Below, in pieces: positions 1,561 to 50,668 of a stretch of DNA of 64,000 nt (the stretch's first letter is position 1; every line of letters starts with the position of its first letter). The notes under the pieces were generated by a model. It saw only the letters and a list, made by a program, of their open reading frames with translations, did no database searches and was not told the origin of the DNA. The stretch spans positions 15,924-79,923 of the forward strand of contig CALKPY010000028.1 in assembly GCA_937991435.1 (NCBI GenBank). Direction: 5' to 3'. A program made the translations under genes and the position numbers. The DNA is from an uncultured Acidimicrobiales bacterium. Lineage in GTDB: Bacteria > Actinomycetota > Acidimicrobiia > Acidimicrobiales > UBA10347.

Positions 1561-4140
1561 TTGATAATTCGCCTCGTCAAAGATCTGCTTCCCTTTCAAG
1601 GACCAATCCTTGTTGGCGTCGCGGTCGACCTGCTGTCGGGAACCGACCGGTCGCTCTATGGCCTTGACCTGACGCCAAACGACACGCGCTCGATCGTGAT
1701 CATCGCCATCGGCATGGGTCTGCTGGCGATCGCCAAGGTTGTGATCGGGTACATGCACACCATCTCGTCGGCTCTTCTTGGCCGCCAAATGGTCGAGGCA
1801 GCTCGGCGGGATATGGCCGAAGCCACCATGCAAATGACGCTCGACGAGCGGCGGCGGTTCAACAGCGGCGACCTGCTCGATCGGTCGTTGGCTGACTCGA
1901 AGGGTCTGCGCAGCTTTGTGCAGAACGTCGTGATCCGGCTCGTCTCCAACACCTTGCGAGCGATCTATCCGGTGACGCTTATGTTCCTCATCGACCCGAT
2001 CATGGCATTGGTCGTTCTCGCTGTGATCCCCTTGCAGTCCGGGTTCAGTGGGCTACTCCAACGGCGACTGCACCGCCAAACCCGGGCAGCTCGCATGCGC
2101 GAAGCCGCTCATACGTCAGCAGTCAAGGAGTCAATCGACGGTTGGAACTCGGTCATATCAGTCGGCGGTCAAGACTGGGTCACCACTGAGCTCAAAGCCT
2201 CAGCCTCGGCTGCTGAAGACGCGAAGATCGAAAAGAAGCACACCACCGCCCAGATCAGCGCGGTCATCAACTTGTGCACCAGTTTCGGCATCGCTGCCTG
2301 TTACGCGATCGGCGGCTGGCGCATCATCAACTCGGGCATTATCGGCAACGACACGGCAACGATCTCTGGCGCACTCACACTCGGCACCTTGACGACCTTT
2401 ATTGGCGTAGCTAAGAAAACGTATGCGCCGTTCCAGGCCTACACCAAGATCGTCAGCTCCTACCGAACCGGAATCGTCAACCTGGAACGCATCAGCGAAG
2501 TCCTCGATGCCCCAATGCAGGACCCTCGACCGAACGGGCCCGTGCTGAATCTCACTGACGGGAACATCGATATTGACGACGTTTCGTTCCGCTATGACGC
2601 CGAGGCAACTCGAGTGTTGTCAGGGCTCACCGGAAGAATCCCCGGCCGGGCCTTGACCGTTATCAGCGGGCCAAGCGGTACGGGAAAGACCACACTGTTA
2701 CGCATGCTTATGGGTCTTGACGTACCCGAGAGTGGCACGATCAGCATCGATGGGCAAGACATCAACACGGCTCGTTTGTCGAGCGTGCGATCGACCATGG
2801 CGCTCGTGCCTCAGGAACCGATGTTGTTCACTGGCACGCTCGGTGAGAATCTGCTGTTCGGCAACCCTTCAGCCTCGACCGAAAAATTGCTCGACGCGTG
2901 CCACAAGGCTGGACTGCTCGAACTCGTTCGAGAACTCCCCAAAGGACTCGACACTGATGTAGGCAGCGGCCGCCACATGCTCTCGGGCGGACAGCTGCGT
3001 CGTATGGCGATCGCCCGAGCTCTCCTGCGCAACCCCGGTGTGTTGTTGCTCGACGAACCAACGACGGGCCTTGACCAGCTTCGCAGCGAACAGGTTCTTG
3101 ACACCCTTCGCTCCATCTCTGCCGAGACCACGGTGATCATGGTGAGTCACCGACGCGACCCCCTGGCTGCCTCGGATCATCACTTCATCCTCGCCGACGG
3201 AAGTTGGACTGCCGGTGCCGCGGGCCCCGCTACAGCCGTTAGGCACGGGGCCGAACCTTTGGCATCGACCATTGACGGTTCCGATCACAGCACCTACGCA
3301 CGGGTCACCGAACCACTATCTTCACCCGCGGCGTCGCACGCTGCGGTGGCGGCGAACGGTGCAGTCGGCGCTGTAGCGACAAATGGCGCAGGTCAGGTCG
3401 CTGCGCGAGCAGTAGCCGCCGCCAACGCGCCATCCGTACCGGCTCGAATTGGCACCCACGTCGGTCATCGTGTCATCGGGCTTTCGGCAATGGGCCGGGC
3501 AATAACGTTGAACTCCATCGACCGGGACAACACCACGACAAGCCTGGTGCTGGTGGGCGGACATCGTGCTGAAATCGATCATCTTCGGGACTTCGCTCCG
3601 CGGTTCCTTGCCGCGGTGGCTCCGATCGACAGCATTGCAGTAGGACTTGCGGCAATCGACAACCTGAATCCAGACGGCGCATGGACCGACGATGGGCGCA
3701 CTGTGCTCGGCATCGACCCATCCGCTGATCATCACCGACGGGCGGCCACCGAGACGTTGCTACTGCATCGCACGGTCGCCGAACACAGCGCTGCGCTCGT
3801 GATCGACGTCGGACATGACCCTCGCCCGAGCGACGGCTCGGCCGATGTGCGCGTCACGATTAGACATGGTTCAAACAGCGAGTCGGTCGCGTGGTTGGGC
3901 CAGCTCGCAAGCGATGTCGAACGTCGTCTTGCCGTTTCACGATTCAGCTTCGACGTCAAGCTCGAGGCCTGCGCAGCCGACAGTTTGACGGCCGCCCTGG
4001 GCGTACCCGTTATCGAACTGACGGCGATCAACGCACCAAGCGGTCACCAGGACGAACGGGTAACAACGGCCCTCGGCGAAGTCGGACTCGCGATCTACCG
4101 ATCGAGCGGTCTCAGCCAGCCGACGTTGGCAAGACCCTGA
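1561..4140 (+). CDS. ABC exporter (TMD-NBD half transporter) with an Ala-rich linker and a C-terminal M14/AstE-like domain
   Basis: This is ORF 1306..4140. Its first ~85 codons are low-complexity and lie in the divergent promoter region. The in-frame TTG at 1561 (LIIRLVKDLLPF...) is my preferred start, but it is uncertain. It has Walker A GPSGTGKTT, signature LSGGQLRR and Walker B LLLDEPT. A 309-aa tail follows (3211..4137). Confidence 0.85.
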   Translation: MIIRLVKDLLPFQGPILVGVAVDLLSGTDRSLYGLDLTPNDTRSIVIIAIGMGLLAIAKVVIGYMHTISSALLGRQMVEAARRDMAEATMQMTLDERRRFNSGDLLDRSLADSKGLRSFVQNVVIRLVSNTLRAIYPVTLMFLIDPIMALVVLAVIPLQSGFSGLLQRRLHRQTRAARMREAAHTSAVKESIDGWNSVISVGGQDWVTTELKASASAAEDAKIEKKHTTAQISAVINLCTSFGIAACYAIGGWRIINSGIIGNDTATISGALTLGTLTTFIGVAKKTYAPFQAYTKIVSSYRTGIVNLERISEVLDAPMQDPRPNGPVLNLTDGNIDIDDVSFRYDAEATRVLSGLTGRIPGRALTVISGPSGTGKTTLLRMLMGLDVPESGTISIDGQDINTARLSSVRSTMALVPQEPMLFTGTLGENLLFGNPSASTEKLLDACHKAGLLELVRELPKGLDTDVGSGRHMLSGGQLRRMAIARALLRNPGVLLLDEPTTGLDQLRSEQVLDTLRSISAETTVIMVSHRRDPLAASDHHFILADGSWTAGAAGPATAVRHGAEPLASTIDGSDHSTYARVTEPLSSPAASHAAVAANGAVGAVATNGAGQVAARAVAAANAPSVPARIGTHVGHRVIGLSAMGRAITLNSIDRDNTTTSLVLVGGHRAEIDHLRDFAPRFLAAVAPIDSIAVGLAAIDNLNPDGAWTDDGRTVLGIDPSADHHRRAATETLLLHRTVAEHSAALVIDVGHDPRPSDGSADVRVTIRHGSNSESVAWLGQLASDVERRLAVSRFSFDVKLEACAADSLTAALGVPVIELTAINAPSGHQDERVTTALGEVGLAIYRSSGLSQPTLARP

Positions 4141-4228
4141 CATCTTTGGTGCGCCGTATCGCCGCAGCGGGCCGACCCCGCAGGCGGCGCCCACGTCCAC
4201 GAGAGCTGGCCGCTTTCGACGCCAACCA

Positions 4229-7200
4229 TTGAAAACCAGCGGCGAACGCCGATGGGAACAGGTGTTGAGTAGCTCTCCGGCGCATGCCGATCGTCGCCTT
4301 TGGGCTGCTCTTGCCACTGCGTTCATGTGGCACGGCGGAATGTTGCTCGGCGGTAGCTACGAGCGCACGTATGACGCGTATATCCATATGTTCTTCGCAG
4401 ACCACTACGCACGCGATTGGTTTTCCACCTGGGAGACCCGTTGGTACACGGGCTTCACCATCACGAGCTATCCGCCCGGCACCCATCAGCTCATTGCGTT
4501 GCTATCAAAGATCTTCAGCCTCGAAACAGCGTTTGTTCTTGTTCAGCTAAGCGCAGTTCTGCTGCTCATAGTCGGTGTGTATCGGTTCAGCCGTATTTGG
4601 GTTGACCCGGTCTCGGCTGGCTGGGCGGCGCTACTCGCTTCGGTGTCGACGTCGCTGGCCGAGGTCGTGCACGTTTTCGGTCAGCTTCCGACCACGTTCT
4701 CATTGGCGATGCTGCTCAACACGTTGCCTTCGATCTTTGTGTGGGTTCGCGACGGTTCGCGTGGCGATCTCGTGCTCGCGTGCGCAGGACTTGCCGCAAC
4801 AACCGCGGCGCACCACGTGACGACACTCTTTGGCGCTGTGTTCTTCGTCGGCCCGGTGGTCGCCACCGCGCTACTCGACCAGTTTCGCTGCCCGCACCCC
4901 GACGAGAAGCCAGGACATTGCGCCCGCGTTGACAGGTATTCGCTATGGCCCGCAATCGCCCGCCGCAGCCGTCGCGTACTTCCGGGCCTGGTTCGTGCTG
5001 GCGTCATCGGTACAGCCGCGATAGCGATCTTGGTCATTGTTGTACTTCCGTACTGGTTGTGGTCAGCGAGCGACCCGATCGTGCAGATACCAATACCTCA
5101 CGCCACGCGAGACAGTTTCATCGAAAACGGAGCGGCGGGCATCGTGTTCTTCGTCGTGCCGTGGGGCCTCATGGTGCTGATGCTGCCGTTCGCGTTGATG
5201 CGGTCGGTGTTCACCCGTGCTCTTCCGCTCGCGGCGTCGGTGGCTTTGTTGTTCATCCTCGGCACCGGAGGCACCACGCCGATTCCGCGTTTGTTGTTGC
5301 GATCGGCCTTTGACATCTTGACCCTGGACCGATTCACGGTCTGGGCGACCATTGGCGTATTGCCGTTGGTCGGAGCGCTCGTGACAAGCATGACCGACGG
5401 TCGCCTCAACACGATTGCTACCTCGCTGCTCGGCCGACGAACATGGAAGGCTGTACTCCTTGGCGGAGCCTGCGGTCTGATGGTGGCCAGCGTGTTGGCT
5501 GCCAACTTTGCCCAGTTCCGTCCGCTCCAGCCCGATCGAATCGACCCCGAGCCCATCGCGGCATTTATGGACAAAGACCAGCATGACCGCTGGAGATACT
5601 TGACCTTGGGGTTCGGCGATCAGATGGCCCGAGTGGCCGCCGAGACCACGGCGACGACGGTCGACGGCAACTATCACTCCGCTCGACGATTGCCTGAACT
5701 GACAAGCCGCTCTGTCGAGCGGCTCGAGGGGGCCAAATTTCGTGGTGTCCCTGGCCTCGGTTCCCTTCAGCAATTCTTGGCTACCCCTGAGCGTTACAAC
5801 CTCAAGTTCGTTTTCTCTAACGACGTGTTCTATGACCCGCTGCTTTGGGCATCGGGGTGGCATCGACTCGATCGTTTACGCAACGGCATCGTTGTATGGG
5901 AACGTGAAGACATACCCCCGCTACCTGATTTGTTGCCGACCAAAGAGCTTCCGGACTGGCAGCGAGTCATGTGGGGCACCTTGCCGATGTCGGCGCTGGC
6001 TGCGGCTGCGCTGACTCAGCTGTGGAACTTCGTTGGTCGACCCAACCCGCAGTCAGCTCAATGGGCCGCTCGCCAGGTTCGTTCACTCGGCCCGACGCCC
6101 GTCGCCCGGATTCTGACGTGGATCGATCGACGACTCGCACGTGCTGCCCAACGCGCGTCTTCAGGGCACCCACGCCACCGCTGGTATCGAGACGTCACCG
6201 AGACCTATCTGCAGCGATTGGACAGACTTGCCGAGCGCCGTGCGCCGAGTCTCCGACTGCGTCTCGCGTGCTGTGCACTGATAGGCGCCCTCGGTTTCGG
6301 GCTATGGCAGATGACAAGCGCGGACCTCGGGGCGACCGATGCCGAAGCAACCGTCGAGTCCTGGTACGACGATCTTGATTTCCAACGGTTTAGCGACGCA
6401 TGGAACCGGCTCGACCCGCAGGCCCGACCACCGTTTGACCAGTTCAGCCTTGAGCGCTCGGTTGTTGACGGCCTTGTCGCCGGTTACAGCAAGCTCGATC
6501 GTGTCGACACGGCGCTGGTCTCATCGACTTCAGACCGAGCAACCGTGCGGGCCAGCCTCAGCTATGTCACGTCGCTCACTCGCTACGACACCGTCGTCGA
6601 CCATCAGCTACGTCGAGTTGACGGACAATGGTGGATTGTTCCGTTCCAAAGCGACGTGTCAACAACACCCGACCAGTTCTCGCGCTCGACCGAAGTGACC
6701 TATCTCAGTCAGGGACGCAGACAGGTGACAGCTGATCAAACCGGTTTCGGCGATGTCTTAGACCGCCCTCGGATCGAGACGCTGAGTGCGCAGGCCGTGT
6801 ACCGAGACGGCCGATTCGCCGTCGTCGGCGAAATTACCAATCTCGATGTCGACCCGGCCGACATTACGGTGACCGCTCGCTTTCTTGGCGAAGACGGGGA
6901 GACGCTCGTCGAACACAATGCAGCGCTCGTCACCGCTAGCAAAGTTCTACCCAGAGAAACCGTTCCGTTTCGAATCGATATCGAAGCGATCGCTGGAGCA
7001 GCCGATGCCAAAGACGAAGCCGCTGGCGAGTTTCAGCCAGATCTGTTTGCCACACCTGACCTGGGTCCACGCGACATCGCCAACATCGAACTCATCACCA
7101 AAGCGGTGGTCACAGGCCGAGATCTTCAACGGGACCTTCAGCCACAGCACCTGCGGGTCGTCGTCGACGACACGGTTACGTTGCTCGGCGAGCTTCGCAA

Positions 7201-40700: not shown

Positions 40701-40929
40701 GTTCCCAAACACCACGCGCGACATTGCGAACAATGACCTCAAGTCGGCCAGACAAAGCTGGAAACACCGCACGTTCTCTTCAGGCGACAGCGATCGCGCC
40801 GAAATCGCCACCATGTTCGCTGGCGTTGCCTTTGACGACCTATTACGTGATCCAATCAATGCTCAAGACCAAGCCGCTGAGCTTCACCACCACATCGCCG
40901 CAACAACCTCAGACTGGTCCGACTCGTGA
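37738..40929 (+). CDS. recC: Exodeoxyribonuclease V gamma subunit (RecC)
   Basis: The 1063-aa protein has the N-terminal stretch ELIVVPSAGLQRWLEQQLA, typical of RecC. It is followed by recB and recD with overlapping stop/start codons. Confidence 0.88.
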   Translation: MPVHITTAENMHNLAHALAGSVGGVRSDPFVEELIVVPSAGLQRWLEQQLAVELGVAANLRFLLPGALTAKLRSMSGATESDSWRLDAITGQVFRLGNPYASEDATDWTGELQGPGSWMARARYIADLFDRYGMHRPHMLRNWAIGNDVGGDSEPLADAAVWQPRLWRAVREQLGPAPAEQLMSFLADLATHDMALTKASRVHVFGLSAMSVEFVQVLRALAVSTDMRLFVPVTSDTRAGSVLRGQGEDPTHPLLATWGRTERDGLGLLREHLPEPAAAADRLTVEPTLVSLLGQLQQQIRLDATPSNADVTADTSMQFHACSGESRQVEVLKDAILHLLKADASLNESDILVMCPQLRRYAPLIEASWGLSARHDESTPGDRVPSLRYAINQGSLNQAAPIIEALQRLLALVRGSVTHSELAAFLALEPVRLRFGFSEDYDLATATEWLGRTAMRWGLNVDHRQRRADLPTHYQAHTLKQSSTAIVGSMAFDEAEIMPAGPAAIRLDLSQFELAAQLGDLTTTLEQIDREWVAGRPADATVWVQRLDTACRQLFAVADTERWQLDALRTVIESIHTVAPDDTLLSIDDLADAIDDAVATRSGWRHFGTGAIIIDQPQALRAVPHRVICLLGFDDDAIPSPGTSGDDLIASHPLPGDRDRRLESKQQLLEAVLSATDTFVVTFSSHNIHTNAEIPPSVALQELLDAAATVAGVRPGQLIRQHARHRWAPSNFELSNPWSFDGSALEIEVARRARSNERWGPADPLPAEQIDAVSLRELVLAASDPSSIYVRDRLGVSLPRPAEQPGDLLPASLSTLERWSVGNGLLHARAKGQSAQQWEQHARSAGHLPPGALGKAEAADAEENVDTLLDAVRQITGVDYTSVTSSLQPISLEIRGTKVLGLVELLNDQVLRVRWSSRKGADDLALWIDALVLSQIGHFEPAFWFSRKSKSLQVLRCRINPDAQAACQTALAYLCDLHRQARREPIALFPNTTRDIANNDLKSARQSWKHRTFSSGDSDRAEIATMFAGVAFDDLLRDPINAQDQAAELHHHIAATTSDWSDS

Positions 40930-43900
40930 CCGCCCCACTCCTCGACACCGCAATCGCCTTGCCACATACTGGGCTCCACTTCATCGAAGCGAGCGCTGGC
41001 ACCGGCAAGACCTACACCCTGGCAACCTTGGCGGCCCGCTGGATTGCTCAGACTGAAATCCCAACGTCACAGCTGCTAGTGGTTACGTTCACCCGCGACG
41101 CTGCAGCCGAACTTCGGAGCCGCGTCAGGAACCGCCTCACCGACCTTGATCGCTCACTCTCTAGCGACGACCAACCAACCAACGACGATCTCGCCGCCTA
41201 CTTGCGGCAGTCACCCGACTGCAGATTGCATCGCGCACGTATCGCAACCGCTATCCGCGACTTTGATCAAGCGACGATCACGACAATCCACAGCTTCTGT
41301 CAGCAGTTGCTCGCACGTTCCGGACTTGAAGGAAACCCCCGTTTCCGGTTGCGCAGCGACGTCGCAAGTATCGAAGCTGACGTGCTGATGAACAGCCTGA
41401 CGGCTCGGTCCTTCGCTATCGATGACGCTGGTGTTCTACCCACCGCAAATCTTCTCGTCAATGGGTTGGCTCAGGCTCGCAACCACCCCGACACGCCGTT
41501 GGCTCCGGGCGACCGAGAGTTCAACGAGCGACGTGCTGCGCTTGACCGCGTCATGGAGATCCTTGACTCTCACGGCGGCCAACCCCAAGACCTGAACAGC
41601 GCTGAAGCGCTCGAAGCACTCGATCTTTGGCAACAGCACGGATCCGCCGAGACCCTGATGTCGAACCGCACGAAGGTCGACCCACGTACCAAAGTCGTCA
41701 ATGCCATGACCGAGTTGCGCAAAGCTGCAATCACCGCCCAAGTGATCGCGTCGTCTCGCGACACGCTCGAACATCGACTCGCAGACCAGGGTGAGCTCGG
41801 GTTTGCTGACCTATTACTTCAGGCTCGTTCGCTAATCACCGGGTCAACCGCGACGCAGGCAGAGTTATCAGCGCGATGGTCGGTCGTGTTCATCGATGAA
41901 TTCCAAGACACCGACCCCACGCAATGGGACATCATCGCATCGATGCTCGAGGCATCGAATCCATCACGTCCGACAGCAGTCGTCGTGGGCGATCCGAAAC
42001 AGGCGATTTACCGCTTTCGCGGTGGTGACATCAATACGTATCAGAGAGCTAAAAACACGCCCGATTCAACGTTGACGACCCTCGATGTCAATTGGCGATC
42101 TTCGCCAGAACTCATCGCAGCGACGAACACACTGTTGGCCGACACCACCTACGGGCCGGGGGTGACCTACGGCTCGATCCGCGCTCCCAAAACACCGCTC
42201 GACATCGAACGGTGCGTTCCCGACGGCGCCCCGATCCAAGCCCGATTGATTGCCCAAGGTTCTGCTGATGACCGCAAGCGCTCAGTAGCGCACGACCTCG
42301 CGATCGAAATACGCAACCTCGTAGCCGACTCAGCACTTGGCTACCGCGACGTTGCAGTGCTTTACAAGGCGCACGCAGACGCACCGGCACTGCTTCGTTC
42401 TCTTCGCGATGTCGGTATTCCTGCGACGATTGGCCGTGGCGAAAGCGTGCTCGATTCACCGGCCGTTCGGCTGTGGCTCACGCTGCTGACCGCGATCGAG
42501 CGCCCGACCGACGCTCGTCGAGTTCGCGCCGCTGCACTGTCGGCCATGTTCGGACACACCGCCGAGCAACTTCTCGACCCTGAGAATGTTCGCAAGCTAC
42601 AGGGTCGACTCCAAACCCTCGCCGCCACCCTTGAGCACCATGGCGTCGCTTGGCTGACCTCAGTTTTGATGCGCTCAGACAACATGGCCATCCACCTCAT
42701 GGGTGCTCCCGACGGCGAGCGCCTTCTGGTCGACACAGAGCACATCGCGGAGCTCCTACATCTCGCGACAGACGGAGCGGCCACCACTGCGACCACCTTG
42801 ATCGCAACGCTCGGCGAACTCGTTGTCTCCGATCCCGACGACGTCGACTATGCGGCAGACCTGATGAAACGCCGGCTGACGACCGACACCGACGAAGACG
42901 TCGTACGTCTTATGTCGATGCATGCCGCCAAAGGACTTGAATTCGAAGTCGTCTACTTGCCCACACTTTGGACAGCGACAATTCCCACTGCGCCGCATCA
43001 CTACATCGACGACGACAGTCGGCCCGTGCTTCGATTCGGCAAGAAGATGCTCGACGAAGCCGCATACGTTCTCGCTGCACGTGAAACGCTCGACGAGAAC
43101 TGCCGACTCGCGTATGTGGCTCTGACCCGTGCACGCCAGCGAGTCGTGCTCTGGTGGCCAGAGCAACCAGCTAATGCCAAGCCGCCCAAGCCCAATGAGT
43201 TCAAGAACGGGTTCGAGCGGTTAATGGCCGAACGAGCACACGCACTTGGACTCGCGGATCCCCACCCAGAGCGCGTGCTGCAACGCATCGCCGAACTTCA
43301 TCCCGAGTCGCTGCAGGTGACAATCGCTGCAGCCGCCGCCGATCTAGGTTCTATCGAAAAGTCAGCGCCTCAGGTCGATTTGGTGACAGACATGCGAGCG
43401 GCGCAGCTCGACCGCGAACTTGACCGAAGCGCTTCGCGCTTGTCTTTCTCGCGCATCTCGGGCGTTGCCTTTCCCTATGACGACCGGGCCCACATCGCAA
43501 CCGACCCGCAACTTGGCGACGACGCAGGCAGCCTTGACGAAAACCCCGACGAAATCCTTGACCCCGTCGTGGTCCCGAGCACCAATGAGGTGCCGCTCGC
43601 CGTTCTTCCCGCCGGCAAGCAGGCAGGAACGCGCTTGCATACCATCTTCGAACACATCGACTTTGGCCAACCTCAGCCGGTGCTCGCCGATCAGGTCGAG
43701 CGCGAATTCAGCAACGAACTCGAACCCGACGACCTGCTAAGGGTGCAACGCGGAATTGCTGCAGCGCTACAGACCCCATTGGGGGCGGCGATAGACCAGG
43801 TGCGTCTGGCCGATATTCATTATGACGACCGGCTCGATGAAATGCAGTTTGACCTGGCACTTCGTGGTGCAGCCTCAAGCCCGGCCACACTTCCGCTGCT

Positions 43901-44408
43901 TTCTGACATCATCGTCGCTCACCTCGACCCCGATGACGCTGACGACGATGTCATCAGAGCCTGGGCGTTGGGGCTCCGCGACCCGGCTCGCACGGTTCGA
44001 TTCGCAGGCTTCCTCACGGGTTCAATCGACCTGCTGTTTCGCGTGCCGACAAGCGACGGCGACTTGAAGTACGTGGTGGCCGATTACAAGTCGAACAAGG
44101 TCGCCCGGTGGCCCGAGCAGATGACTCCTGAGGTGTACCAACGTGAGCGACTCGGCCATGAAATGGTGCACGGGCAATACCTGCTCCAGGCATTGTTGTA
44201 CCTGGTCGCAGCCAATCGGTTCCTCAAACAACGCGTCGAAAACTATGACGCCGACAAGCAACTCGGACCCGCGTTGTATCTGTTCGTTCGTGGCATGACC
44301 GGCGCCCAAGGCAGTGACGGCGCCCCATTTGGCGTCTTCTCATGGCGTCCGGCGACAGCAATGATCGAAGCTGTCGACACCGCTCTATTGGCACCGGTGA
44401 CGTCATGA
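40926..44408 (+). CDS. recB: Exodeoxyribonuclease V beta subunit (RecB helicase-nuclease)
   Basis: The start overlaps the upstream stop as GTGA. It has Walker A EASAGTGKTYTL and UvrD-type motifs (FIDEFQDTD, VGDPKQAIYRFRGGD). The C-terminal PD-(D/E)xK nuclease motif is GSIDLLFR...YVVADYKSN. Confidence 0.92.
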   Translation: MTAPLLDTAIALPHTGLHFIEASAGTGKTYTLATLAARWIAQTEIPTSQLLVVTFTRDAAAELRSRVRNRLTDLDRSLSSDDQPTNDDLAAYLRQSPDCRLHRARIATAIRDFDQATITTIHSFCQQLLARSGLEGNPRFRLRSDVASIEADVLMNSLTARSFAIDDAGVLPTANLLVNGLAQARNHPDTPLAPGDREFNERRAALDRVMEILDSHGGQPQDLNSAEALEALDLWQQHGSAETLMSNRTKVDPRTKVVNAMTELRKAAITAQVIASSRDTLEHRLADQGELGFADLLLQARSLITGSTATQAELSARWSVVFIDEFQDTDPTQWDIIASMLEASNPSRPTAVVVGDPKQAIYRFRGGDINTYQRAKNTPDSTLTTLDVNWRSSPELIAATNTLLADTTYGPGVTYGSIRAPKTPLDIERCVPDGAPIQARLIAQGSADDRKRSVAHDLAIEIRNLVADSALGYRDVAVLYKAHADAPALLRSLRDVGIPATIGRGESVLDSPAVRLWLTLLTAIERPTDARRVRAAALSAMFGHTAEQLLDPENVRKLQGRLQTLAATLEHHGVAWLTSVLMRSDNMAIHLMGAPDGERLLVDTEHIAELLHLATDGAATTATTLIATLGELVVSDPDDVDYAADLMKRRLTTDTDEDVVRLMSMHAAKGLEFEVVYLPTLWTATIPTAPHHYIDDDSRPVLRFGKKMLDEAAYVLAARETLDENCRLAYVALTRARQRVVLWWPEQPANAKPPKPNEFKNGFERLMAERAHALGLADPHPERVLQRIAELHPESLQVTIAAAAADLGSIEKSAPQVDLVTDMRAAQLDRELDRSASRLSFSRISGVAFPYDDRAHIATDPQLGDDAGSLDENPDEILDPVVVPSTNEVPLAVLPAGKQAGTRLHTIFEHIDFGQPQPVLADQVEREFSNELEPDDLLRVQRGIAAALQTPLGAAIDQVRLADIHYDDRLDEMQFDLALRGAASSPATLPLLSDIIVAHLDPDDADDDVIRAWALGLRDPARTVRFAGFLTGSIDLLFRVPTSDGDLKYVVADYKSNKVARWPEQMTPEVYQRERLGHEMVHGQYLLQALLYLVAANRFLKQRVENYDADKQLGPALYLFVRGMTGAQGSDGAPFGVFSWRPATAMIEAVDTALLAPVTS

Positions 44409-46210
44409 CCGAAACCAGTCTCGTCAGCTTCACCATGAACGATCTCATCAATGCAGGCCTGGTCAGTCGGGCCGGCGTCAACTTCGCTCACTACATCGCA
44501 TCCGATTCGTCACTAACGGTTCAGATAGCCGCGGCTCTCGCAGTTACCGCCACCCAGCGCAGCCATTCAAACCTCGACTTGGCGCGCATCGCAGATGATC
44601 TCGGAGATCACGTTGCCTGGCCCTCGATCGAGACCTGGGTTTCTGAGCTCGAACAGAGCCCACTCGTGCAGCGTCTCAGCGCAAGTCACCCGGCAACCCA
44701 CGACTTTGATCGCGCTGCGTTCGATCCCCCGTCGAGCGACGGGCCGCCGCTCACATTGCGTGGCACACAACTGTTCCTTCGACGGTTCGATCATGACGAA
44801 CAGCAGATCGCGCGAACTCTGAGCTACCTGTTGACGAGAGATGACGACGCAACCCGACCTCATAACCTGAGCGCTCTGTTCGCAACCTCCGAACGGGATC
44901 CCAGCAATACGTCACTGCAGGCCGCTGAACTACTCGTATCTGGCGCGTTATCGGTTCTGACCGGCGGCCCAGGCACCGGCAAGACCTTCACGATTGCCCG
45001 CACGATTGCCGCGATGTGGCAGGTGAACCCTGACACCACCATCGCGCTGGCGGCGCCGACCGGCAAGGCTGCGATGCGCATGAAACAAGCCGTGCTGCAG
45101 GCGATTCCATCGGTCGACGGGCAGCTGTCACAACAGTTACAGGAACTCGAAGCCCACACCCTGCACAGGTTGCTCGGACTCCGTCCTGGCCAACCCCCGC
45201 GCCACTCGAGGTACAGCCCGCTTCCTCACGACGTGGTGATCGTTGACGAGGTGTCGATGGTGTCGCTACCGCTGATGGCGGATCTCATGCAGGCGTTGCG
45301 ACCCGACGCCCGGTTGATACTTGTAGGCGACCCGCATCAGCTGGCAAGCGTCGAAGCTGGCTCCATTCTTCGCGACCTTGTGGATCATCGCGCACCCACA
45401 CGAACCCGAGTGGCCGAACTCACCGTCAATCACCGCTCTGTTCCGCTTCTCGAAACTCTTTTTTCAGCGGTCAACCGTGGCGATGGCGATGAGGTGGTCG
45501 AGATATTGCGATCCGCCGACCCAGCTGTCATCCAGTGGATCGAGACTGCTGACGACGCGACGATTCCCGAGATCGACGCGGCAACCGACGATCTCTTGAG
45601 ACGCGTCGTCACACCGCATGCTCTCGGGCTCATCGCTGCAGCTCGGGTCGAAACCATCGAGATTGCGCATGCGGAACTCGTCGACACGAAACTTCTCTGC
45701 GCCACTCGCAATGGCGCGCTTGGGTCCGGGCGGTGGCAGCTTCGAGTCGAGCGCATGCTGCGTCCGAAATCCGAGCGACATCGCACCTGGTATGTCGGTC
45801 GCCCCGTAATGGCCACGCGCAACGACTACATCACCGGCCTACTCAACGGAGACGCCGGCGTTTGTCTAGGCGACACCGTTTCGTTTCCGGACTCAGGCAA
45901 TTTCGGCATCGAGCAGCTGCATGACATTGAAACCTGGTGGGCAATGACGATTCACAAAAGCCAAGGATCAGAGTTTCGCCATGCCATCGTCAGCCTTGAC
46001 GCTGCGACTCGGCTGAACACCCGCGAGCTGCTGTACACCGCAATCACTCGAGCCAAAGAACAGCTCACGGTCGTGGCCAGCGAAGCAACGTTGCGCCAGG
46101 CGACCAAGCGACAAGCGGTGCGATCGTCGGGGTTGCTCGACAAATTGGCTGCGGCATCAGAAGCATCTATCGAGCCGAAGCCGGCGCAGCTCAGCCTCGA
46201 ACTCGGGTAG
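44405..46210 (+). CDS. recD: Exodeoxyribonuclease V alpha subunit (RecD)
   Basis: ORF 44342..46210 is trimmed to ATG 44405, which overlaps the recB stop as ATGA. Motifs are Walker A GGPGTGKTFT, VIVDEVSMV, MTIHKSQGSEF and YTAITRAK. Confidence 0.9.
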   Translation: MTETSLVSFTMNDLINAGLVSRAGVNFAHYIASDSSLTVQIAAALAVTATQRSHSNLDLARIADDLGDHVAWPSIETWVSELEQSPLVQRLSASHPATHDFDRAAFDPPSSDGPPLTLRGTQLFLRRFDHDEQQIARTLSYLLTRDDDATRPHNLSALFATSERDPSNTSLQAAELLVSGALSVLTGGPGTGKTFTIARTIAAMWQVNPDTTIALAAPTGKAAMRMKQAVLQAIPSVDGQLSQQLQELEAHTLHRLLGLRPGQPPRHSRYSPLPHDVVIVDEVSMVSLPLMADLMQALRPDARLILVGDPHQLASVEAGSILRDLVDHRAPTRTRVAELTVNHRSVPLLETLFSAVNRGDGDEVVEILRSADPAVIQWIETADDATIPEIDAATDDLLRRVVTPHALGLIAAARVETIEIAHAELVDTKLLCATRNGALGSGRWQLRVERMLRPKSERHRTWYVGRPVMATRNDYITGLLNGDAGVCLGDTVSFPDSGNFGIEQLHDIETWWAMTIHKSQGSEFRHAIVSLDAATRLNTRELLYTAITRAKEQLTVVASEATLRQATKRQAVRSSGLLDKLAAASEASIEPKPAQLSLELG

Positions 46211-46229: not shown

Positions 46230-47450
46230 TCAGTCCAGTTTCGAGCCGAACAGTCGGGGCGCTGCTCTGACTGAAGTCTCGCCAATCGCCCCCAGAAGCC
46301 ACGCTCCGCCGATAGCCATCAGAATCGCCAGAGCGACCGATGCCGCTCCAAGCCCGAGCTGAGCACCGACGAGGCCAACGACTAGCGGTCCGGCGATCGC
46401 GCCCACATCTTCGAAGATGGCCAGACCCGCAAGGAACGGTCCTGGAGCATCATCTGGCGAGAGATCGCTGCCGTAGGTCATCAAGCCACCTGAACTCAAC
46501 CCGTTTCCCACGCCCATCATCGCGCCCGCTGCGACAACAGCGCTAGTAGATGCTGCCGTCCCCAGCCAAACGAGGCCGACCGACATGAGCGTGAACGACG
46601 GGATGAGTGCCCACAGTCTTCCGAATCGATCCATCACATACCCAGCGACGGGAAACAACGCCAGATCTGCCATCGTGCTCACGGTCACGATGGCGCCAAT
46701 ACCTGCAGGGCTCACCCCCAATTCGTCAGCGATCAGCGGAAGCACGACATAGCGCCCACGACGGGCTGCCGCCACATGCAGCGGAACCCAACCAGCGATG
46801 AGAAGACGCCGCCAATGAGTTCGCAGGCCAACGACCATGCCCCCGACCAGTCGCCGGGTCGATGATTGGTCGAGTAGAGGCAGACCGACGTCTCGCGAGA
46901 CAAGCGCCTGCGCAAGTCCGAGCCCCGCCGTTAGCGCCGCGACGATAAAGGTCGCCTTGTATCCGAATCGATCGAGTACGACACCGCCGACGACAGGGCC
47001 GAGCAACAAGGCGACCCGATTGGAACCTCCGATGTATGACATCGCCCTGCCCCGTTGATCGACGGGGACTCGGCGAGTGACATATGTCTGACGAGACAAA
47101 CGCAACGCGACGTGTGCTCCGCCAAAGAGCACCCGAAGCCCAACGAGCAGCCCGACGGAGTCAGTGAAACCCAGCGGAAGCCCAACCAATGCCATGACGC
47201 CAAAGGCAACCAACAACGCGGTGTACTCGCCACGCTTGGCGATCAAGCTGCCAACCGGCAACCCCGCGATCGAAGCACCGATGCCGACCCCAGCAAGCAC
47301 GACTGACGCCGACTCGAGAGACAGCCCTGCGTCGGTCAGATACAGCGGCATCACCGGAATGAGCATCGAAGAGCCCAGCGTGCCGAACAGGATCGGGGCA
47401 TAGACGGCCGGCACCAAGCGACGCAGTGTTACCCCAGTGCGGGCGGCCAT
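46230..47450 (-). CDS. MFS transporter
   Basis: ORF 46230..47534 is trimmed to ATG 47450, 2 nt after the upstream stop (TGAtcATG). It has about 12 hydrophobic helices. Confidence 0.8.
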   Translation of the reverse strand: MAARTGVTLRRLVPAVYAPILFGTLGSSMLIPVMPLYLTDAGLSLESASVVLAGVGIGASIAGLPVGSLIAKRGEYTALLVAFGVMALVGLPLGFTDSVGLLVGLRVLFGGAHVALRLSRQTYVTRRVPVDQRGRAMSYIGGSNRVALLLGPVVGGVVLDRFGYKATFIVAALTAGLGLAQALVSRDVGLPLLDQSSTRRLVGGMVVGLRTHWRRLLIAGWVPLHVAAARRGRYVVLPLIADELGVSPAGIGAIVTVSTMADLALFPVAGYVMDRFGRLWALIPSFTLMSVGLVWLGTAASTSAVVAAGAMMGVGNGLSSGGLMTYGSDLSPDDAPGPFLAGLAIFEDVGAIAGPLVVGLVGAQLGLGAASVALAILMAIGGAWLLGAIGETSVRAAPRLFGSKLD

Positions 47451-47452
47451 GA

Positions 47453-48613
47453 TCAGCGTGGACCCAGATAGCGGGCGATCGTGCGAAATCGCAGGGCCGT
47501 TTCGCCGTATTCCTCGAGTGCATGGGCGATCCACCCCACCGTTCTCGCAACGGCAAAGATTGATTCGCCGGCGTCGGCATCCATTCCAGAGAGCCAGGTC
47601 ATGGCCCCGAGAGCGAGGTCAACATTGGGCAACATGCCATGCCGATCACCGGCGACATCGCGCAGGCGATGTATGTGGGCCAAACGCGGGTCGTCGGCCC
47701 ATGCGTGCATAACCTGAGCCATCAAGGCCCCGTAGCGTGGGTCCTGCCTGCTGTAAACGGTGTGCCCAAACCCAGGAACCCTGCCGATACGCCGGACAAC
47801 ATCCCCGACGGCCGCAGCAATATCTCCGCGACTTTTGGCGTCGGCGATCAGCTCATGTACGGCTGCGCTTGCGGCTCCGTGTAGCAGCCCACCGACGGCG
47901 CCCATGCCCGTGGACACGACCGAATAAGGGTCAGCGCGTACCGAAGCTGCGACCCGCGCCGCGAACGTGGAGCTAGCAAGACCATGATCAGCGAGTAGGG
48001 CGAGCGCAAGGTCGAGCGTTGCCCGTTCCTCGATTGATCCCCGTCTCGGTGTCAGCCTTCGCCACAACATTTCAACGAGATCCGTTGAGCGGCCCTTTTG
48101 CTTTGGCGGCAGGCCACTCGCCATCGTCGTGATCATGCGGCGACCACAGGCTCGCACGGTTCGCTCCGAAAGATCATGACGCAGCGGGTCAGTATGCGAT
48201 GCCTGGGCAACGAGAGATCGCAGCCCGTCGAGTCCTGACATCGTCGTCGTCAATTCCGGTTCCACAGCAGGCCAAGTCTCGCCATCGCCGCCCTGCCAGA
48301 TGAGATCTGCAACCTCGACAAATGACGTTCCCTTGCGAACCAATTCGACAAGGTCCTGGCCGCGCACCAAAAGTTGATCATCATCGACTCGAGTGATCGA
48401 GGTCGCAATCAGTGTGCGAAGCTCACCGTCTTCGCGATCGGCTCCTCTCATGCGGAACTGTTCGACCTCGTGCGGATCGAACATGCTGGACCGACCGTCG
48501 AGGGCGACCGTGCGATGCAGTAGGCCGCGGCTCACGTAGGCGTACAACGTCTGACGCTTGACGCCTAGGCGGGCAGCCGCCTGGGCGGCCGTCATCAACT
48601 CGCTACTAGTCAC
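47453..48613 (-). CDS. Fusion of an excisionase/MerR-type HTH with a citrate-synthase-like domain (putative metabolite-sensing regulator)
   Basis: The N-terminal HTH is MTAAQAAARLGVKRQTLYAYVSRGLLHR. The rest aligns by eye with citrate synthases (LHGAASAAV, GFGHTVYSRQDPR, PNVDLALG, ARTVGWIAHALEE). The start is GTG. Confidence 0.8.
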   Translation of the reverse strand: MTSSELMTAAQAAARLGVKRQTLYAYVSRGLLHRTVALDGRSSMFDPHEVEQFRMRGADREDGELRTLIATSITRVDDDQLLVRGQDLVELVRKGTSFVEVADLIWQGGDGETWPAVEPELTTTMSGLDGLRSLVAQASHTDPLRHDLSERTVRACGRRMITTMASGLPPKQKGRSTDLVEMLWRRLTPRRGSIEERATLDLALALLADHGLASSTFAARVAASVRADPYSVVSTGMGAVGGLLHGAASAAVHELIADAKSRGDIAAAVGDVVRRIGRVPGFGHTVYSRQDPRYGALMAQVMHAWADDPRLAHIHRLRDVAGDRHGMLPNVDLALGAMTWLSGMDADAGESIFAVARTVGWIAHALEEYGETALRFRTIARYLGPR

Positions 48614-48670
48614 GATGTGTATTCATTTCTCACGCCTCGTCAGGGTAGATAGACCACCGAGTGCCCGGAG

Positions 48671-48710
48671 GTTGATTGCGTCAACGTTGACTTGATCAAT
48701 GTTGTCAACA
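48671..48710. promoter_or_regulatory. Array of GTTGA/TCAAC half-sites with 15-bp phasing (candidate operator)
   Basis: The array reads GTTGATTGCGTCAAC, GTTGACTTGATCAAT and GTTGTCAACA starting at 48671, 48686 and 48701. It includes the perfect palindromes GTCAACGTTGAC (48680-48691) and TTGATCAA (48692-48699). It sits between the divergent HTH-CS-like and citrate synthase genes. Confidence 0.55.
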
Positions 48711-48736
48711 TAGCGATTTGAACGCAGAGTGGAGCC

Positions 48737-49852
48737 ATGGATGAACTCATTGCCCCACCCGGACTCAAAGGTCTCATTGTCGCCGACACGACGATCGGTA
48801 GCGTGCGAGGCGACGAGGGCTTCTTCCATTATCGCGACCATGACGCCGTCGAAATCGCACGCCACCAGACGTTCGAGGCTGCAGCCTCGCTGTTGATTGA
48901 TGGCACGCTTCCGAGCGCCGCAGAAGAAAGTTCGATGAGGGCCCAACTCGCCACAAACCGCATGTTGAGCGCCGAGCTCATTGACGCACTTCGAGCAATC
49001 GTCGCGGTGACGAACAACCCTCTCCCGGCTTTGCGGGCTGCAATCTCCCTTGTCGTCGATGACACGGCAACGATCGACCTCACACCCGAGGAACGACGCG
49101 AACGGGCAATTCGCGTCGTTGGGGCGACGCCAAGCGTGCTAGCCGCCATTTACCGAATTGCAGCCAACAAGCCCGTCCTCGATGCTGACCCGAGTCTGAG
49201 CCATGCTGCCGACTATGTGCGAATGGTGACTGGAACCGCCGCAAGTCCAACGCTCGCTCGAGCGGTTGAGACGTATCTGCTCCTTACCGCGGACCATGGC
49301 TTCAATGCTTCGACGTTCACTGCACGAGTCATCACGAGTACCGGCGCAGGGGTTGGCAGCGCCTTTGCCGGAGCAATCGGTGCACTATCTGGGCCGCTCC
49401 ACGGCGGCGCGCCGAGCCGCGTGCTCGACATGATCAATGCAATCGGAAGCCCCCAGAACACCGAAGATTGGGCTCGCGACGAACTCAAAGCAGGTCGCAA
49501 GCTCATGGGCTTTGGACACGCGGTGTACCGCGCCGATGATCCCCGCTCCCTGCTGCTGCGCGAAACGGCGGTTGGGCTCGGCGGAGAACTCGTCGACCAG
49601 GCAATCGAGATCGAACAACGCATGCTTGCGTTTCTCGCCGAATGGCGTCCCGAAGCAACCATCGTCACCAATGTCGAGTTCTACGCGGCCGTCGTAATGC
49701 ATTTAGCGGGAATCTCCCAAGACATGTTCACGCCAACATTTACGACGAGCCGAGTCGTCGGCTGGGCCGCCCACGTACTCGAGCAAGCGGCGAATAACAA
49801 GATAATGCGACCCAAGGCCCGGTACGTCGGCCCTGCCGTGAAGGTTCCCTGA
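48737..49852 (+). CDS. Citrate synthase family enzyme (citrate or 2-methylcitrate synthase type)
   Basis: The 371-aa protein has motifs LHGGAPSRV, GFGHAVYRADDPR and SRVVGWAAHVLEQ. The usual NVDFY motif reads NVEFY here. Confidence 0.85.
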   Translation: MDELIAPPGLKGLIVADTTIGSVRGDEGFFHYRDHDAVEIARHQTFEAAASLLIDGTLPSAAEESSMRAQLATNRMLSAELIDALRAIVAVTNNPLPALRAAISLVVDDTATIDLTPEERRERAIRVVGATPSVLAAIYRIAANKPVLDADPSLSHAADYVRMVTGTAASPTLARAVETYLLLTADHGFNASTFTARVITSTGAGVGSAFAGAIGALSGPLHGGAPSRVLDMINAIGSPQNTEDWARDELKAGRKLMGFGHAVYRADDPRSLLLRETAVGLGGELVDQAIEIEQRMLAFLAEWRPEATIVTNVEFYAAVVMHLAGISQDMFTPTFTTSRVVGWAAHVLEQAANNKIMRPKARYVGPAVKVP

Positions 49853-49891: not shown

Positions 49892-50668
49892 CTACGAGCG
49901 GCGCCATCCGCCCTCGGAGTTGATGACCTGGCCGCTGATCCAATCGCCTTCGCCGCTGACGAGCCAGGCGACGATACGGGCGCTGTCGGTCGGCTGACCC
50001 CAACGGCCCTGCGGAAATGCGCTCCTCACATCTTCATAGTCCTGCCCGGTGGCCCAACCCGTATCAACAGGGCCCGGGTTGATCGTGTTGACCGTGATGC
50101 CCTTGTCGGCCACAGCGTTGGCCAACGAGGCTGTCATCTGGTGGATCGCCCCCTTTGAGACGGCATAGGCGATCTCTCCATCCATCGGTCCCAGATGTTG
50201 ACCGCTTGTAAACAGCACGAGACGACCGCCCGGGCGCTGTCCGTCATGGTGGCGGTCAAGCGCTTGTGCGAGTAGCACGCTCGCACGGGCGTTTACCGCC
50301 CAACAAGCGTCGAGCTCCTCAGCAGTCACCGTTGCGAGGCCGTTCGACGACGATTGGGCGTGGGCTGCTACGACGATGTCAACGGGACCAAATTCGTGGG
50401 CTGCGTCGTCGAGCAGTGTTGCAGGGGTTGTGGCGTCCGCGAGATCTGCGGGCTCCCAGCGGTAGCGCTCCGCGGGCAGGTCGCCGTCGTCTCGGGGCGT
50501 GCTTCCCCACGGCATCTGCTCATCGTGGCTCGGCCATCCGGTCGCGAACACCGAGGCTCCATCATCGACCAATCGCCGAGCAACCGCCATGGCGATACCG
50601 GCCGACCGCGACACCCCGGTGACGACAGCGACCTTGCCCTTCAGCGGAAGTGAACTCATGGCGCGCAC
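49892..50668 (-). CDS. Short-chain dehydrogenase/reductase
   Basis: The 258-aa protein has motifs VAVVTGVSRSAGIA and YAVSKGA (YxxxK). Confidence 0.82.
   Translation of the reverse strand: MRAMSSLPLKGKVAVVTGVSRSAGIAMAVARRLVDDGASVFATGWPSHDEQMPWGSTPRDDGDLPAERYRWEPADLADATTPATLLDDAAHEFGPVDIVVAAHAQSSSNGLATVTAEELDACWAVNARASVLLAQALDRHHDGQRPGGRLVLFTSGQHLGPMDGEIAYAVSKGAIHQMTASLANAVADKGITVNTINPGPVDTGWATGQDYEDVRSAFPQGRWGQPTDSARIVAWLVSGEGDWISGQVINSEGGWRRS

Follow-up and report, generated by a model that had tools for sequence, protein, structure and literature searches.

The fusion gene and its divergent citrate synthase neighbor

The window analyzed here, a stretch of 64,000 nucleotides from contig CALKPY010000028.1 of an uncultured Acidimicrobiales bacterium, contains a gene for a protein of 386 aa (47453..48613, minus strand) in which a predicted DNA-binding domain precedes a citrate synthase (CS) fold. 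An alternative ATG start lies six codons downstream of the GTG start and would yield a protein of 380 aa (P0001). A gene for an MFS transporter of 406 aa (46230..47450, minus strand; MFS_1, 142 bits) starts 2 nt after the stop codon of the fusion gene, the junction reading CGC TGA tc ATG GCC, and is probably co-transcribed with it. On the other side, across an intergenic gap of 123 nt (48614-48736), a stand-alone CS of 371 aa is encoded divergently (48737..49852, plus strand; Citrate_synt, 341 bits). The observation of the earlier note is thus confirmed. The arrangement is far beyond chance; the same two-domain protein recurs in hundreds of genomes and the divergent CS recurs in 68 of the 80 genome loci that we compared.

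The N-terminal domain (48452..48598, minus strand, residues 6-54) matches HTH_17 (PF12728) with 31.9 bits (cut-off 27), while the MerR models PF13411 (MerR_1) and PF00376 score 23.4 bits (cut-off 21.6) and 20.7 bits (cut-off 28.2), respectively. Whether this segment is predicted as a DNA-binding fold had been named beforehand as a critical point for the interpretation. The AlphaFold2 model of the monomer (mean pLDDT 82) indeed gives a strand-helix-helix-strand-strand-helix winged HTH at residues 7-57, followed by a low-confidence linker (residues 58-69) and a CS fold. The long antiparallel coiled-coil dimerization helix and the C-terminal effector-binding region of MerR-family regulators are absent from this model, since the helix at residues 47-57 leads into the disordered linker. 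When the HTH alone was compared with PDB sequences, only a weak hit to an AlpA-family protein (8C3T, E = 1) was obtained.

The CS-fold domain occupies residues 70-386 (47456..48406, minus strand), with the Pfam match to Citrate_synt (PF00285) extending over residues 70-372 (184 bits, cut-off 27). Foldseek retrieves PrpC, CitA and other CS structures as best matches (TM about 0.65). The motifs LHGAAS, GFGHTVYSRQDPR, PNVD and ARTVGWIAHALEE, which the earlier note had taken as enzyme landmarks, are all present and align to the catalytic motifs of solved CS structures. H210, H245, H284, R293, D332, R357 and R377 are retained, whereas the universal Asn of the DH-x-x-N-A-S-T motif is replaced by Ala213. 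The protein does not reach the cut-off of any of the 22 NCBIfam models for CS and citryl-CoA lyase; the best score is 130.8 bits for TIGR01800 against a cut-off of 421.3.

The stand-alone enzyme is a CitA-type CS. Its best match is CitA from B. subtilis (2C6X, E 1.8e-79), and it carries Glu instead of the catalytic Asp (NVEFY) as well as HGGAP instead of HGGAN (GPLHGGAPSRV). NVEFY, which the earlier note had pointed out, is not an oddity of this gene but the hallmark of the whole CitA clade: 2C6X likewise has NVEFY, M. tuberculosis CitA (8GMF) has NVEFW and all 68 partners have NVE.

Distribution, upstream array and partner genes

The fusion occurs in 57 of 401 sampled Actinomycetota genomes, in at least 580 species genomes and in about 411 clusters at 50% identity, and more than 100 homologues were found to have the same two domains. 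Its CS domains form a single clade (support 100/100) on a long branch outside all true CSs, with terminal branches longer than those of the partners, and this distinct clade is fast-evolving. The partners group with 2C6X and 8GMF (support 100/99), and the fusion and partner trees are broadly congruent. In 200 family members, down to about 39% identity, the HTH residues T22, Y24, Y26, S28, R29 and G30 are conserved in 198-200 sequences, and the same holds true for H210, the catalytic His/His/Asp (H245, H284, D332) and the three substrate-binding Arg residues (R293, R357, R377). The adenine-loop residues P280, G281, G283 and H284 are conserved in 200 of 200 sequences or nearly so, R324 is invariant, and 28 of 55 universally conserved CS columns are retained. 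On the other hand, Ala replaces the universal Asn in 199 of 200 sequences, and the basic residues at positions +1 and +4 after GFGH are not conserved.

The intergenic region harbors a putative operator (48671..48709), an array of RTTGAY/RTCAAY hexamers that includes GTTGA-N5-TCAAC, the 12-bp palindrome GTCAACGTTGAC, TTGATCAA and GTTGTCAAC. It ends 27 nt before the ATG of the CS gene and starts 58 nt from the GTG of the fusion gene. A promoter scan of positions 48400-48900 found no sigma-70-like promoter. The array, with the core GTCAAY-RTTGAY-N3-RTCAAY, lies just upstream of the fusion gene in 78 of 80 loci from three phyla, including loci without a CS partner and loci from Myxococcota and Acidobacteriota, and is nearly absent elsewhere. 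TCAANNTTGA occurs 77 times in the 858 kb of these 80 loci; 76 occurrences lie within about 150 nt upstream of the fusion start, and the 77th lies next to the CS gene in L013, a locus in which an insertion has split the pair. The two exceptions, the Streptomyces loci L061 and L077, keep the fusion gene but have lost both the clear array and the partner. In the 3.7-Mb host genome the three-half-site form occurs once, in this intergenic region. In five other genomes it occurs once or twice each, with one copy at the fusion locus in four of the five, while the reversed control gave 0. Single 15-bp palindromes occur 21 times in the host genome, mostly inside ORFs, but only this intergenic region has the clustered array, and a wider regulon was therefore rejected in favor of a local regulator.

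Partner calls were based on tblastn, because simple ORF calling mis-assigned opposite-strand ORFs in GC-rich loci. A divergent CitA-type CS is present in 68 of 80 loci. In the subclade comprising loci L017, L041, L062, L065 and L074 the divergent gene instead encodes an enzyme of the homocitrate/isopropylmalate/citramalate synthase family, that is, another enzyme condensing acetyl-CoA with a 2-oxoacid, and in locus L039 it encodes a family III CoA-transferase. Some genomes keep the fusion without any adjacent partner.

A putative regulator built on the citrate synthase fold

The earlier note inferred an enzyme-derived sensor domain that could bind oxaloacetate, acyl-CoA or citrate and regulate a paralogous enzyme and a transporter. 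This interpretation is partly supported by our findings. The predicted winged HTH, the distinct CS clade, the conserved operator-like array and the conserved divergent partner argue strongly for a regulator-target pair, whereas coupling to an MFS transporter is not a family feature, and a sensor cannot be separated from a protein that is still an enzyme. In our view the protein most likely is a local, autoregulated one-component transcription factor whose effector domain is a nearly intact CS, and we consider this reading reasonably well supported. As CS is an obligate dimer, the protein would present two N-terminal winged HTH domains that would bind the hexamer array in the divergent promoter region and from there control its own operon, here including the MFS gene, and the divergent CitA-type CS. 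The pocket keeps every oxaloacetate/citrate-binding residue, the catalytic triad and the adenine-binding loop and would therefore bind a CS ligand, be it oxaloacetate, citrate and/or an acyl-CoA. The open-to-closed domain rotation of CS dimers would then change how the two HTH domains engage DNA. While the domain architecture, the conservation of residues, site and partner and the locality of the site were established here, DNA binding and its modulation by a ligand, the identity of that ligand, the sign of regulation and the coupling mechanism are inferred, with binding of the HTH to the array resting on co-occurrence only.

The complete conservation of the catalytic triad and the adenine loop fits a working enzyme as well as a sensor. 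It is therefore possible, albeit tentative, that the protein is a bifunctional enzyme-regulator following the logic of BirA, PutA or NadR, that is, a catalytically active citrate or 2-methylcitrate synthase in which turnover or a bound intermediate such as citryl-CoA sets the affinity for DNA, such that the protein would report flux or substrate supply rather than simply bind a metabolite. This view overlaps with the preferred one and differs only with regard to catalysis. The exchange of the universal Asn, the loss of the basic residues after GFGH, the long branch, the failure to reach any NCBIfam cut-off and the presence of two true CS genes in the same genome speak against it. We regard it as very unlikely that the protein is merely a third CS isozyme, its N-terminal extension lacking a DNA-binding role and the conserved AT-rich array serving some other regulator. 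Databases name the protein citrate synthase, the probable S. coelicolor orthologue SCO5831 is treated as a putative CS (PMC12323332, PMC9739823), and MtrA binds the intergenic region there (PMC12323332). However, the HTH residues are as invariant as the catalytic ones, the array follows the fusion gene into three phyla and into loci lacking the CS partner, which an unrelated host regulator would not do, and the MtrA site lies in a different, Streptomyces-only sub-element. Equally unlikely is a role as pseudoenzyme subunit that forms a heterodimer with the CitA-type partner and tethers or titrates it, with the HTH reporting partner abundance. Co-inheritance of the two genes, the broadly congruent trees and the fact that CS active sites are built across the dimer interface would agree with such a role, but a whole subclade pairs the fusion with an unrelated TIM-barrel condensing enzyme, some genomes lack an adjacent partner, and fusion and partner are only about 30% identical.

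The most far-reaching possibility, which remains tentative, is that a catalytically competent CS acts as a flux-sensing transcription factor. Binding of oxaloacetate plus acyl-CoA or formation of citryl-CoA would close the dimer, reposition the HTH domains on the array and switch on or off an alternative acetyl-CoA/2-oxoacid condensing enzyme, a CitA-type Si-citrate synthase in most lineages and a homocitrate/Re-citrate-synthase-like TIM-barrel enzyme in others. This would be a previously unrecognized class of central-carbon regulator, present in roughly one in seven Actinomycetota species and probably in S. coelicolor, for which orthology of SCO5831 is inferred. CS is a textbook example of ligand-induced domain closure, and a natural transcription factor built on it would offer a structurally tractable case of how the conformational cycle of an enzyme is turned into gene control. 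It could also serve as a ready-made biosensor scaffold for oxaloacetate, citrate or acyl-CoA. A function would be assigned to genes that genome annotation and Streptomyces papers count as citrate synthases (SCO5831/citA3 being the probable example), a count that inflates the apparent number of TCA-cycle isozymes. Furthermore, the finding points to how the poorly understood CitA-type second citrate synthases, relatives of M. tuberculosis CitA, are controlled in Actinomycetota genomes carrying the fusion, and the swap to a non-homologous condensing enzyme suggests that the regulated function is the condensation step rather than one particular gene.

Related systems and accessory genes

In B. subtilis, the LysR-type regulator CitR is encoded divergently from the minor citrate synthase gene citA. 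The layout resembles the one described here, including a CitA-type CS with NVEFY, but the regulator studied in this work is not LysR-type and consists of an HTH_17 domain on a CS fold. By design it is analogous to the MocR/GabR/PdxR regulators, in which a winged HTH is fused to a complete, dimeric aminotransferase fold that keeps its cofactor or substrate site, serves as the sensor and typically acts on a neighboring, often divergent gene. There is no homology, as the HTH class (GntR versus HTH_17/MerR-like) and the enzyme fold both differ. BirA, PutA and NadR share with the fusion fully conserved catalytic residues next to a DNA-binding domain, so that catalysis or a reaction intermediate could be the signal, but the enzyme families are unrelated and catalysis by the fusion remains hypothetical. 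The N-terminal domain resembles MerR-family and excisionase-type HTH_17 proteins such as AlpA, without the MerR dimerization helix or C-terminal effector lobe, and dimerization would have to come from the CS body. CitA of Caulobacter, a CS paralogue with a regulatory role in the cell cycle, is a further case of a CS-family protein used for regulation rather than, or besides, metabolism, but it has no DNA-binding domain and is not a transcription factor.

SCO5831 (citA3) and SCO5832 (citA4) of S. coelicolor are probably the orthologous divergent pair, orthology being inferred. The published intergenic MtrA site TTGACTTAACTGTCCA matches the Streptomyces-conserved element TTGATTCGACTGTCCA next to the array. 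As MtrA binds this intergenic region (PMC12323332), the fusion is not the only input there. Full-text literature searches revealed no paper that recognizes the HTH-CS fusion; only S. coelicolor expression and MtrA papers name SCO5831 as a CS-like gene, and the papers found treat both proteins as putative citrate synthases and do not mention the HTH.

The MFS transporter is a lineage-specific accessory. A tblastn search with the protein from the window found nothing in the 80 genome loci, where the genes downstream of the fusion are heterogeneous. Among three near-relative proteins that were looked up, one keeps the coupling, at both places found for it (L087, L088), while the MFS gene is absent in L086 and lies on the other strand in L084/L085. 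A link to the module is uncertain for the short-chain dehydrogenase gene that is convergent with the CS gene in the window (49892..50668, minus strand; adh_short_C2), but a short-chain dehydrogenase gene recurs next to the CS gene in near relatives, namely in L086 (same strand, 20-nt gap) and in L087/L088.

Architecture and residue conservation of the fusion protein

The three genes lie where the earlier note had placed them, and its observation of an HTH fused to a citrate-synthase-like body next to a transporter gene and a divergent citrate synthase (CS) gene is confirmed. The fusion protein of 386 aa is encoded at 47453..48613(-), the MFS transporter at 46230..47450(-) and the stand-alone CS of 371 aa at 48737..49852(+). 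The stop codon of the fusion gene and the start codon of the MFS gene are separated by only 2 nt (...CGC TGA tc ATG...), while the divergent start codons of the fusion and CS genes are 123 nt apart. Pfam profiles identified an N-terminal HTH_17 domain at residues 6-54 of the fusion protein (31.9 bits, cut-off 27), with MerR_1 also passing, albeit marginally (23.4 bits against 21.6), and a Citrate_synt domain at residues 70-372 (184 bits). The divergently encoded neighbour is a full CS (341 bits) and the gene downstream of the fusion encodes an MFS_1 transporter.

The fusion protein is not a bona fide CS by curated thresholds. None of the NCBIfam models for CS, PrpC or citryl-CoA lyase reaches its cut-off, the best score being 131 bits against a required 421. 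The host genome, a 3.7-Mb assembly whose placement in the Acidimicrobiales agrees with the nearest loci found, contains three CS-family genes, namely a gltA-like gene on another contig, the stand-alone CS and the fusion. In a maximum-likelihood tree the CS bodies of 23 fusion proteins form a single clade with 100/100 support, which sits on a long branch outside all true CSs and whose terminal branches are roughly twice as long as those of the divergently encoded partners. In the AlphaFold2 model (mean pLDDT 82) residues 7-57 are predicted to form a strand-helix-helix-strand-strand-helix winged HTH, residues 58-69 constitute a low-confidence linker and the remainder is a confidently predicted CS fold, for which Foldseek returned M. 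tuberculosis PrpC, CitA and other CSs as best matches. The earlier note had named the absence of a DNA-binding fold at the N-terminus as a result that would refute its claim, and the predicted structure therefore does not refute this reading. The protein is, on the other hand, not a classical MerR regulator because the coiled-coil helix is lacking in the model.

An alignment of 200 family members, reaching down to about 39% identity, revealed that the HTH residues T22, Y24, Y26, S28, R29 and G30 are conserved in 198-200 of 200 sequences. The residues corresponding to the pig-heart CS set are equally conserved: H210 (His238), H245 (His274), H284 (His320), R293 (Arg329), D332 (Asp375), R357 (Arg401) and R377 (Arg421'). 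Of 55 columns that are at least 95% conserved in 75 bona fide CSs, 28 are kept in the fusions. The clearest family-specific change at a universal position is the replacement of Asn by Ala213 in the DH-x-x-N-A-S-T motif, which is seen in 199 of 200 sequences. In addition, the basic residues at +1 and +4 after GFGH are not conserved. The pocket is therefore under strong purifying selection, although such conservation does not by itself distinguish between catalysis and mere ligand binding.

Distribution of the fusion and its divergent partners

A degenerate-pattern scan of one genome per species detected the fusion in at least 580 species genomes. Most of these are Acidimicrobiia and Streptomyces, while Actinoplanes, Nonomuraea and Spirillospora also appear, together with a few metagenome-assembled genomes of Myxococcota and Acidobacteriota. 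The first 120 residues, comprising the HTH and the junction, match 57 of 401 evenly sampled Actinomycetota genomes, that is 27 of 249 genera, and always in one copy. The same 120 residues match 411 clusters at 50% identity with E values up to 1e-10.

In 68 of 80 genome loci that were compared (numbered with the prefix L), a CS gene lies divergently upstream of the fusion gene, usually at a distance of 50-270 nt. All 68 partners carry Glu at the position of the catalytic Asp, in the form of NVEFY (54), NVEFW (6), NVEYY (5), NVELY (2) or NVEYW (1). The same Glu is present in the structurally solved CitA proteins of B. subtilis (2C6X, NVEFY) and M. tuberculosis (8GMF, NVEFW), with which the partners group at 100/99 support. 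The NVEFY motif, pointed out in the earlier note for the stand-alone CS, is therefore a hallmark of the CitA clade and not a peculiarity of this gene.

A different divergent gene is found in a well-supported subclade of fusions (loci L017, L041, L062, L065 and L074; support 100/96). Here, at about 3570-4950 on the minus strand of each locus, a short protein of about 400-450 aa from the homocitrate/isopropylmalate/citramalate-synthase family is encoded, whose best NCBIfam hit is NifV-type homocitrate synthase, below cut-off. In L041 the hit is split and the gene may be disrupted. This enzyme is not homologous to CS but also condenses acetyl-CoA with a 2-oxoacid. Re-citrate synthase belongs to this family, and the proteins could be Re-citrate synthases. 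In locus L039 the divergent gene encodes a family III CoA-transferase. The common theme is an acyl-CoA-using enzyme, in most cases a condensing one.

A conserved upstream array and the inferred mode of action

The intergenic regions share a striking AT-rich array with the consensus tGTCAAtATTGATnnnATCAAt, which reads as hexamer half-sites RTCAAY-RTTGAY-N3-RTCAAY. The 10-mer TCAANNTTGA occurs 77 times in the 858 kb of the 80 loci and 76 of these copies lie within about 150 nt upstream of the fusion start. The remaining copy sits next to the CS gene in L013, an Actinoplanes locus, in which an insertion of about 870 nt has separated the pair and each gene has kept its own copy of the array (L013:4100-4200 and about L013:4959). 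With relaxed matching, the unit is found in 78 of 80 loci. It is present where the CS partner is missing or replaced as well as in loci from Myxococcota and Acidobacteriota, and the site therefore travels with the fusion gene. In two Streptomyces genomes (L061 and L077) the fusion gene is kept, but the adjacent CS is lacking and the array upstream of position 5001 has been lost or degraded. The module may be decaying there.

In the window, the array is located at 48671-48709 and contains GTTGA-N5-TCAAC, GTCAACGTTGAC, TTGATCAA and GTTGTCAAC. It ends 27 nt before the CS start codon, so it must overlap the CS promoter or leader. The three-half-site form occurs once in the host genome, at this place. 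In five other genomes it occurs once or twice each, with one copy at the fusion locus in four of the five, while a reversed-pattern control gave zero matches. Single 15-bp palindromes elsewhere in the host genome lie mostly inside ORFs. Single RTTGAY-N3-RTCAAY palindromes or a three-half-site-like string outside long ORFs were noted on three further contigs (C128:21632, C136:18550 and C94:15804) and could be extra weak targets or chance matches. The invariant recognition residues and the invariant site match each other. Together, this is strong comparative evidence for a local autoregulator that also controls the divergent gene, but it is not proof of binding.

The earlier note had suggested an enzyme-derived sensor that could bind oxaloacetate, acyl-CoA or citrate and regulate both the paralogous enzyme and the transporter, an interpretation that is partly supported by our findings. 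What the analysis establishes is the architecture, the selection acting on both domains, a conserved site that travels with the gene, the locality of this site and a partner that is conserved or functionally equivalent. Everything beyond this, including DNA binding itself and regulation of either sign, is inferred. In this view, the CS body would dimerize, as all CSs do, and present two HTH domains to the hexamer array, while a CS ligand (oxaloacetate, citrate or acyl-CoA) would drive the open-to-closed rotation known for these enzymes and thereby alter DNA binding. A bifunctional mode resembling that of BirA or PutA, in which the protein would also catalyze, remains possible but is considered the less likely alternative.

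The design resembles that of the MocR/GabR regulators, in which an HTH is combined with an enzyme fold, and that of the enzyme-repressors BirA, PutA and NadR, while the genetic layout parallels B. subtilis citR-citA. None of these is homologous to the fusion. In the papers found, sco5831 and sco5832 of S. coelicolor are termed citA3 and citA4, and both are described as putative citrate synthases without mention of the HTH (PMC12323332, PMC9739823, PMC7324645). They are the probable orthologues of the pair studied here, although for SCO5831 this is inferred from the shared intergenic element and not from the gene sequence. MtrA was shown to bind their intergenic region at a neighbouring, Streptomyces-specific element. 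Our literature searches did not reveal any paper describing the fusion as a regulator. Enzyme-fold one-component regulators as such are established. What sets the present protein apart is a sensor fold that is not used by any characterized regulator known to us or found in these searches, in combination with a defined candidate operator and a wide distribution.

The MFS transporter and other neighbouring genes

The tight coupling of the fusion gene with the MFS gene at 46230-47450(-) is real here and is repeated at both places found for one related protein (loci L087 and L088). It is absent in L086, another locus of a near relative, and in L084/L085 an MFS gene lies further downstream on the other strand. 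It is likewise absent in all 80 genome loci, where the downstream genes are unrelated to each other. The transporter is a lineage-specific addition to the operon of the putative regulator. Its family matches are weak and efflux-like. The best NCBIfam similarities, all far below cut-off, are to efflux-type transporters and include the rhizoferrin exporter FslB. Rhizoferrin is a citrate-derived siderophore. This is only a hint about what the protein might export.

On the other side of the module, a short-chain dehydrogenase gene at 49892-50668(-) lies next to the CitA-type CS gene, and this neighbourhood recurs in near relatives (L086:1994-2773, L087:1899-2678 and L088:407-1186). In L086 it is located on the same strand with a 20-nt gap, and it may be a further member of the module in this lineage. 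A terminator-like hairpin (CGAGGCTGCAGCCTCG followed by a T-rich tail) at 48874-48889(+) lies inside the CS coding region and is probably a chance match. Two large overlapping genes at 40926-46210(+), which end just before the MFS gene, look like a RecB-like helicase-nuclease (1160 aa) and a RecD-like helicase (622 aa).
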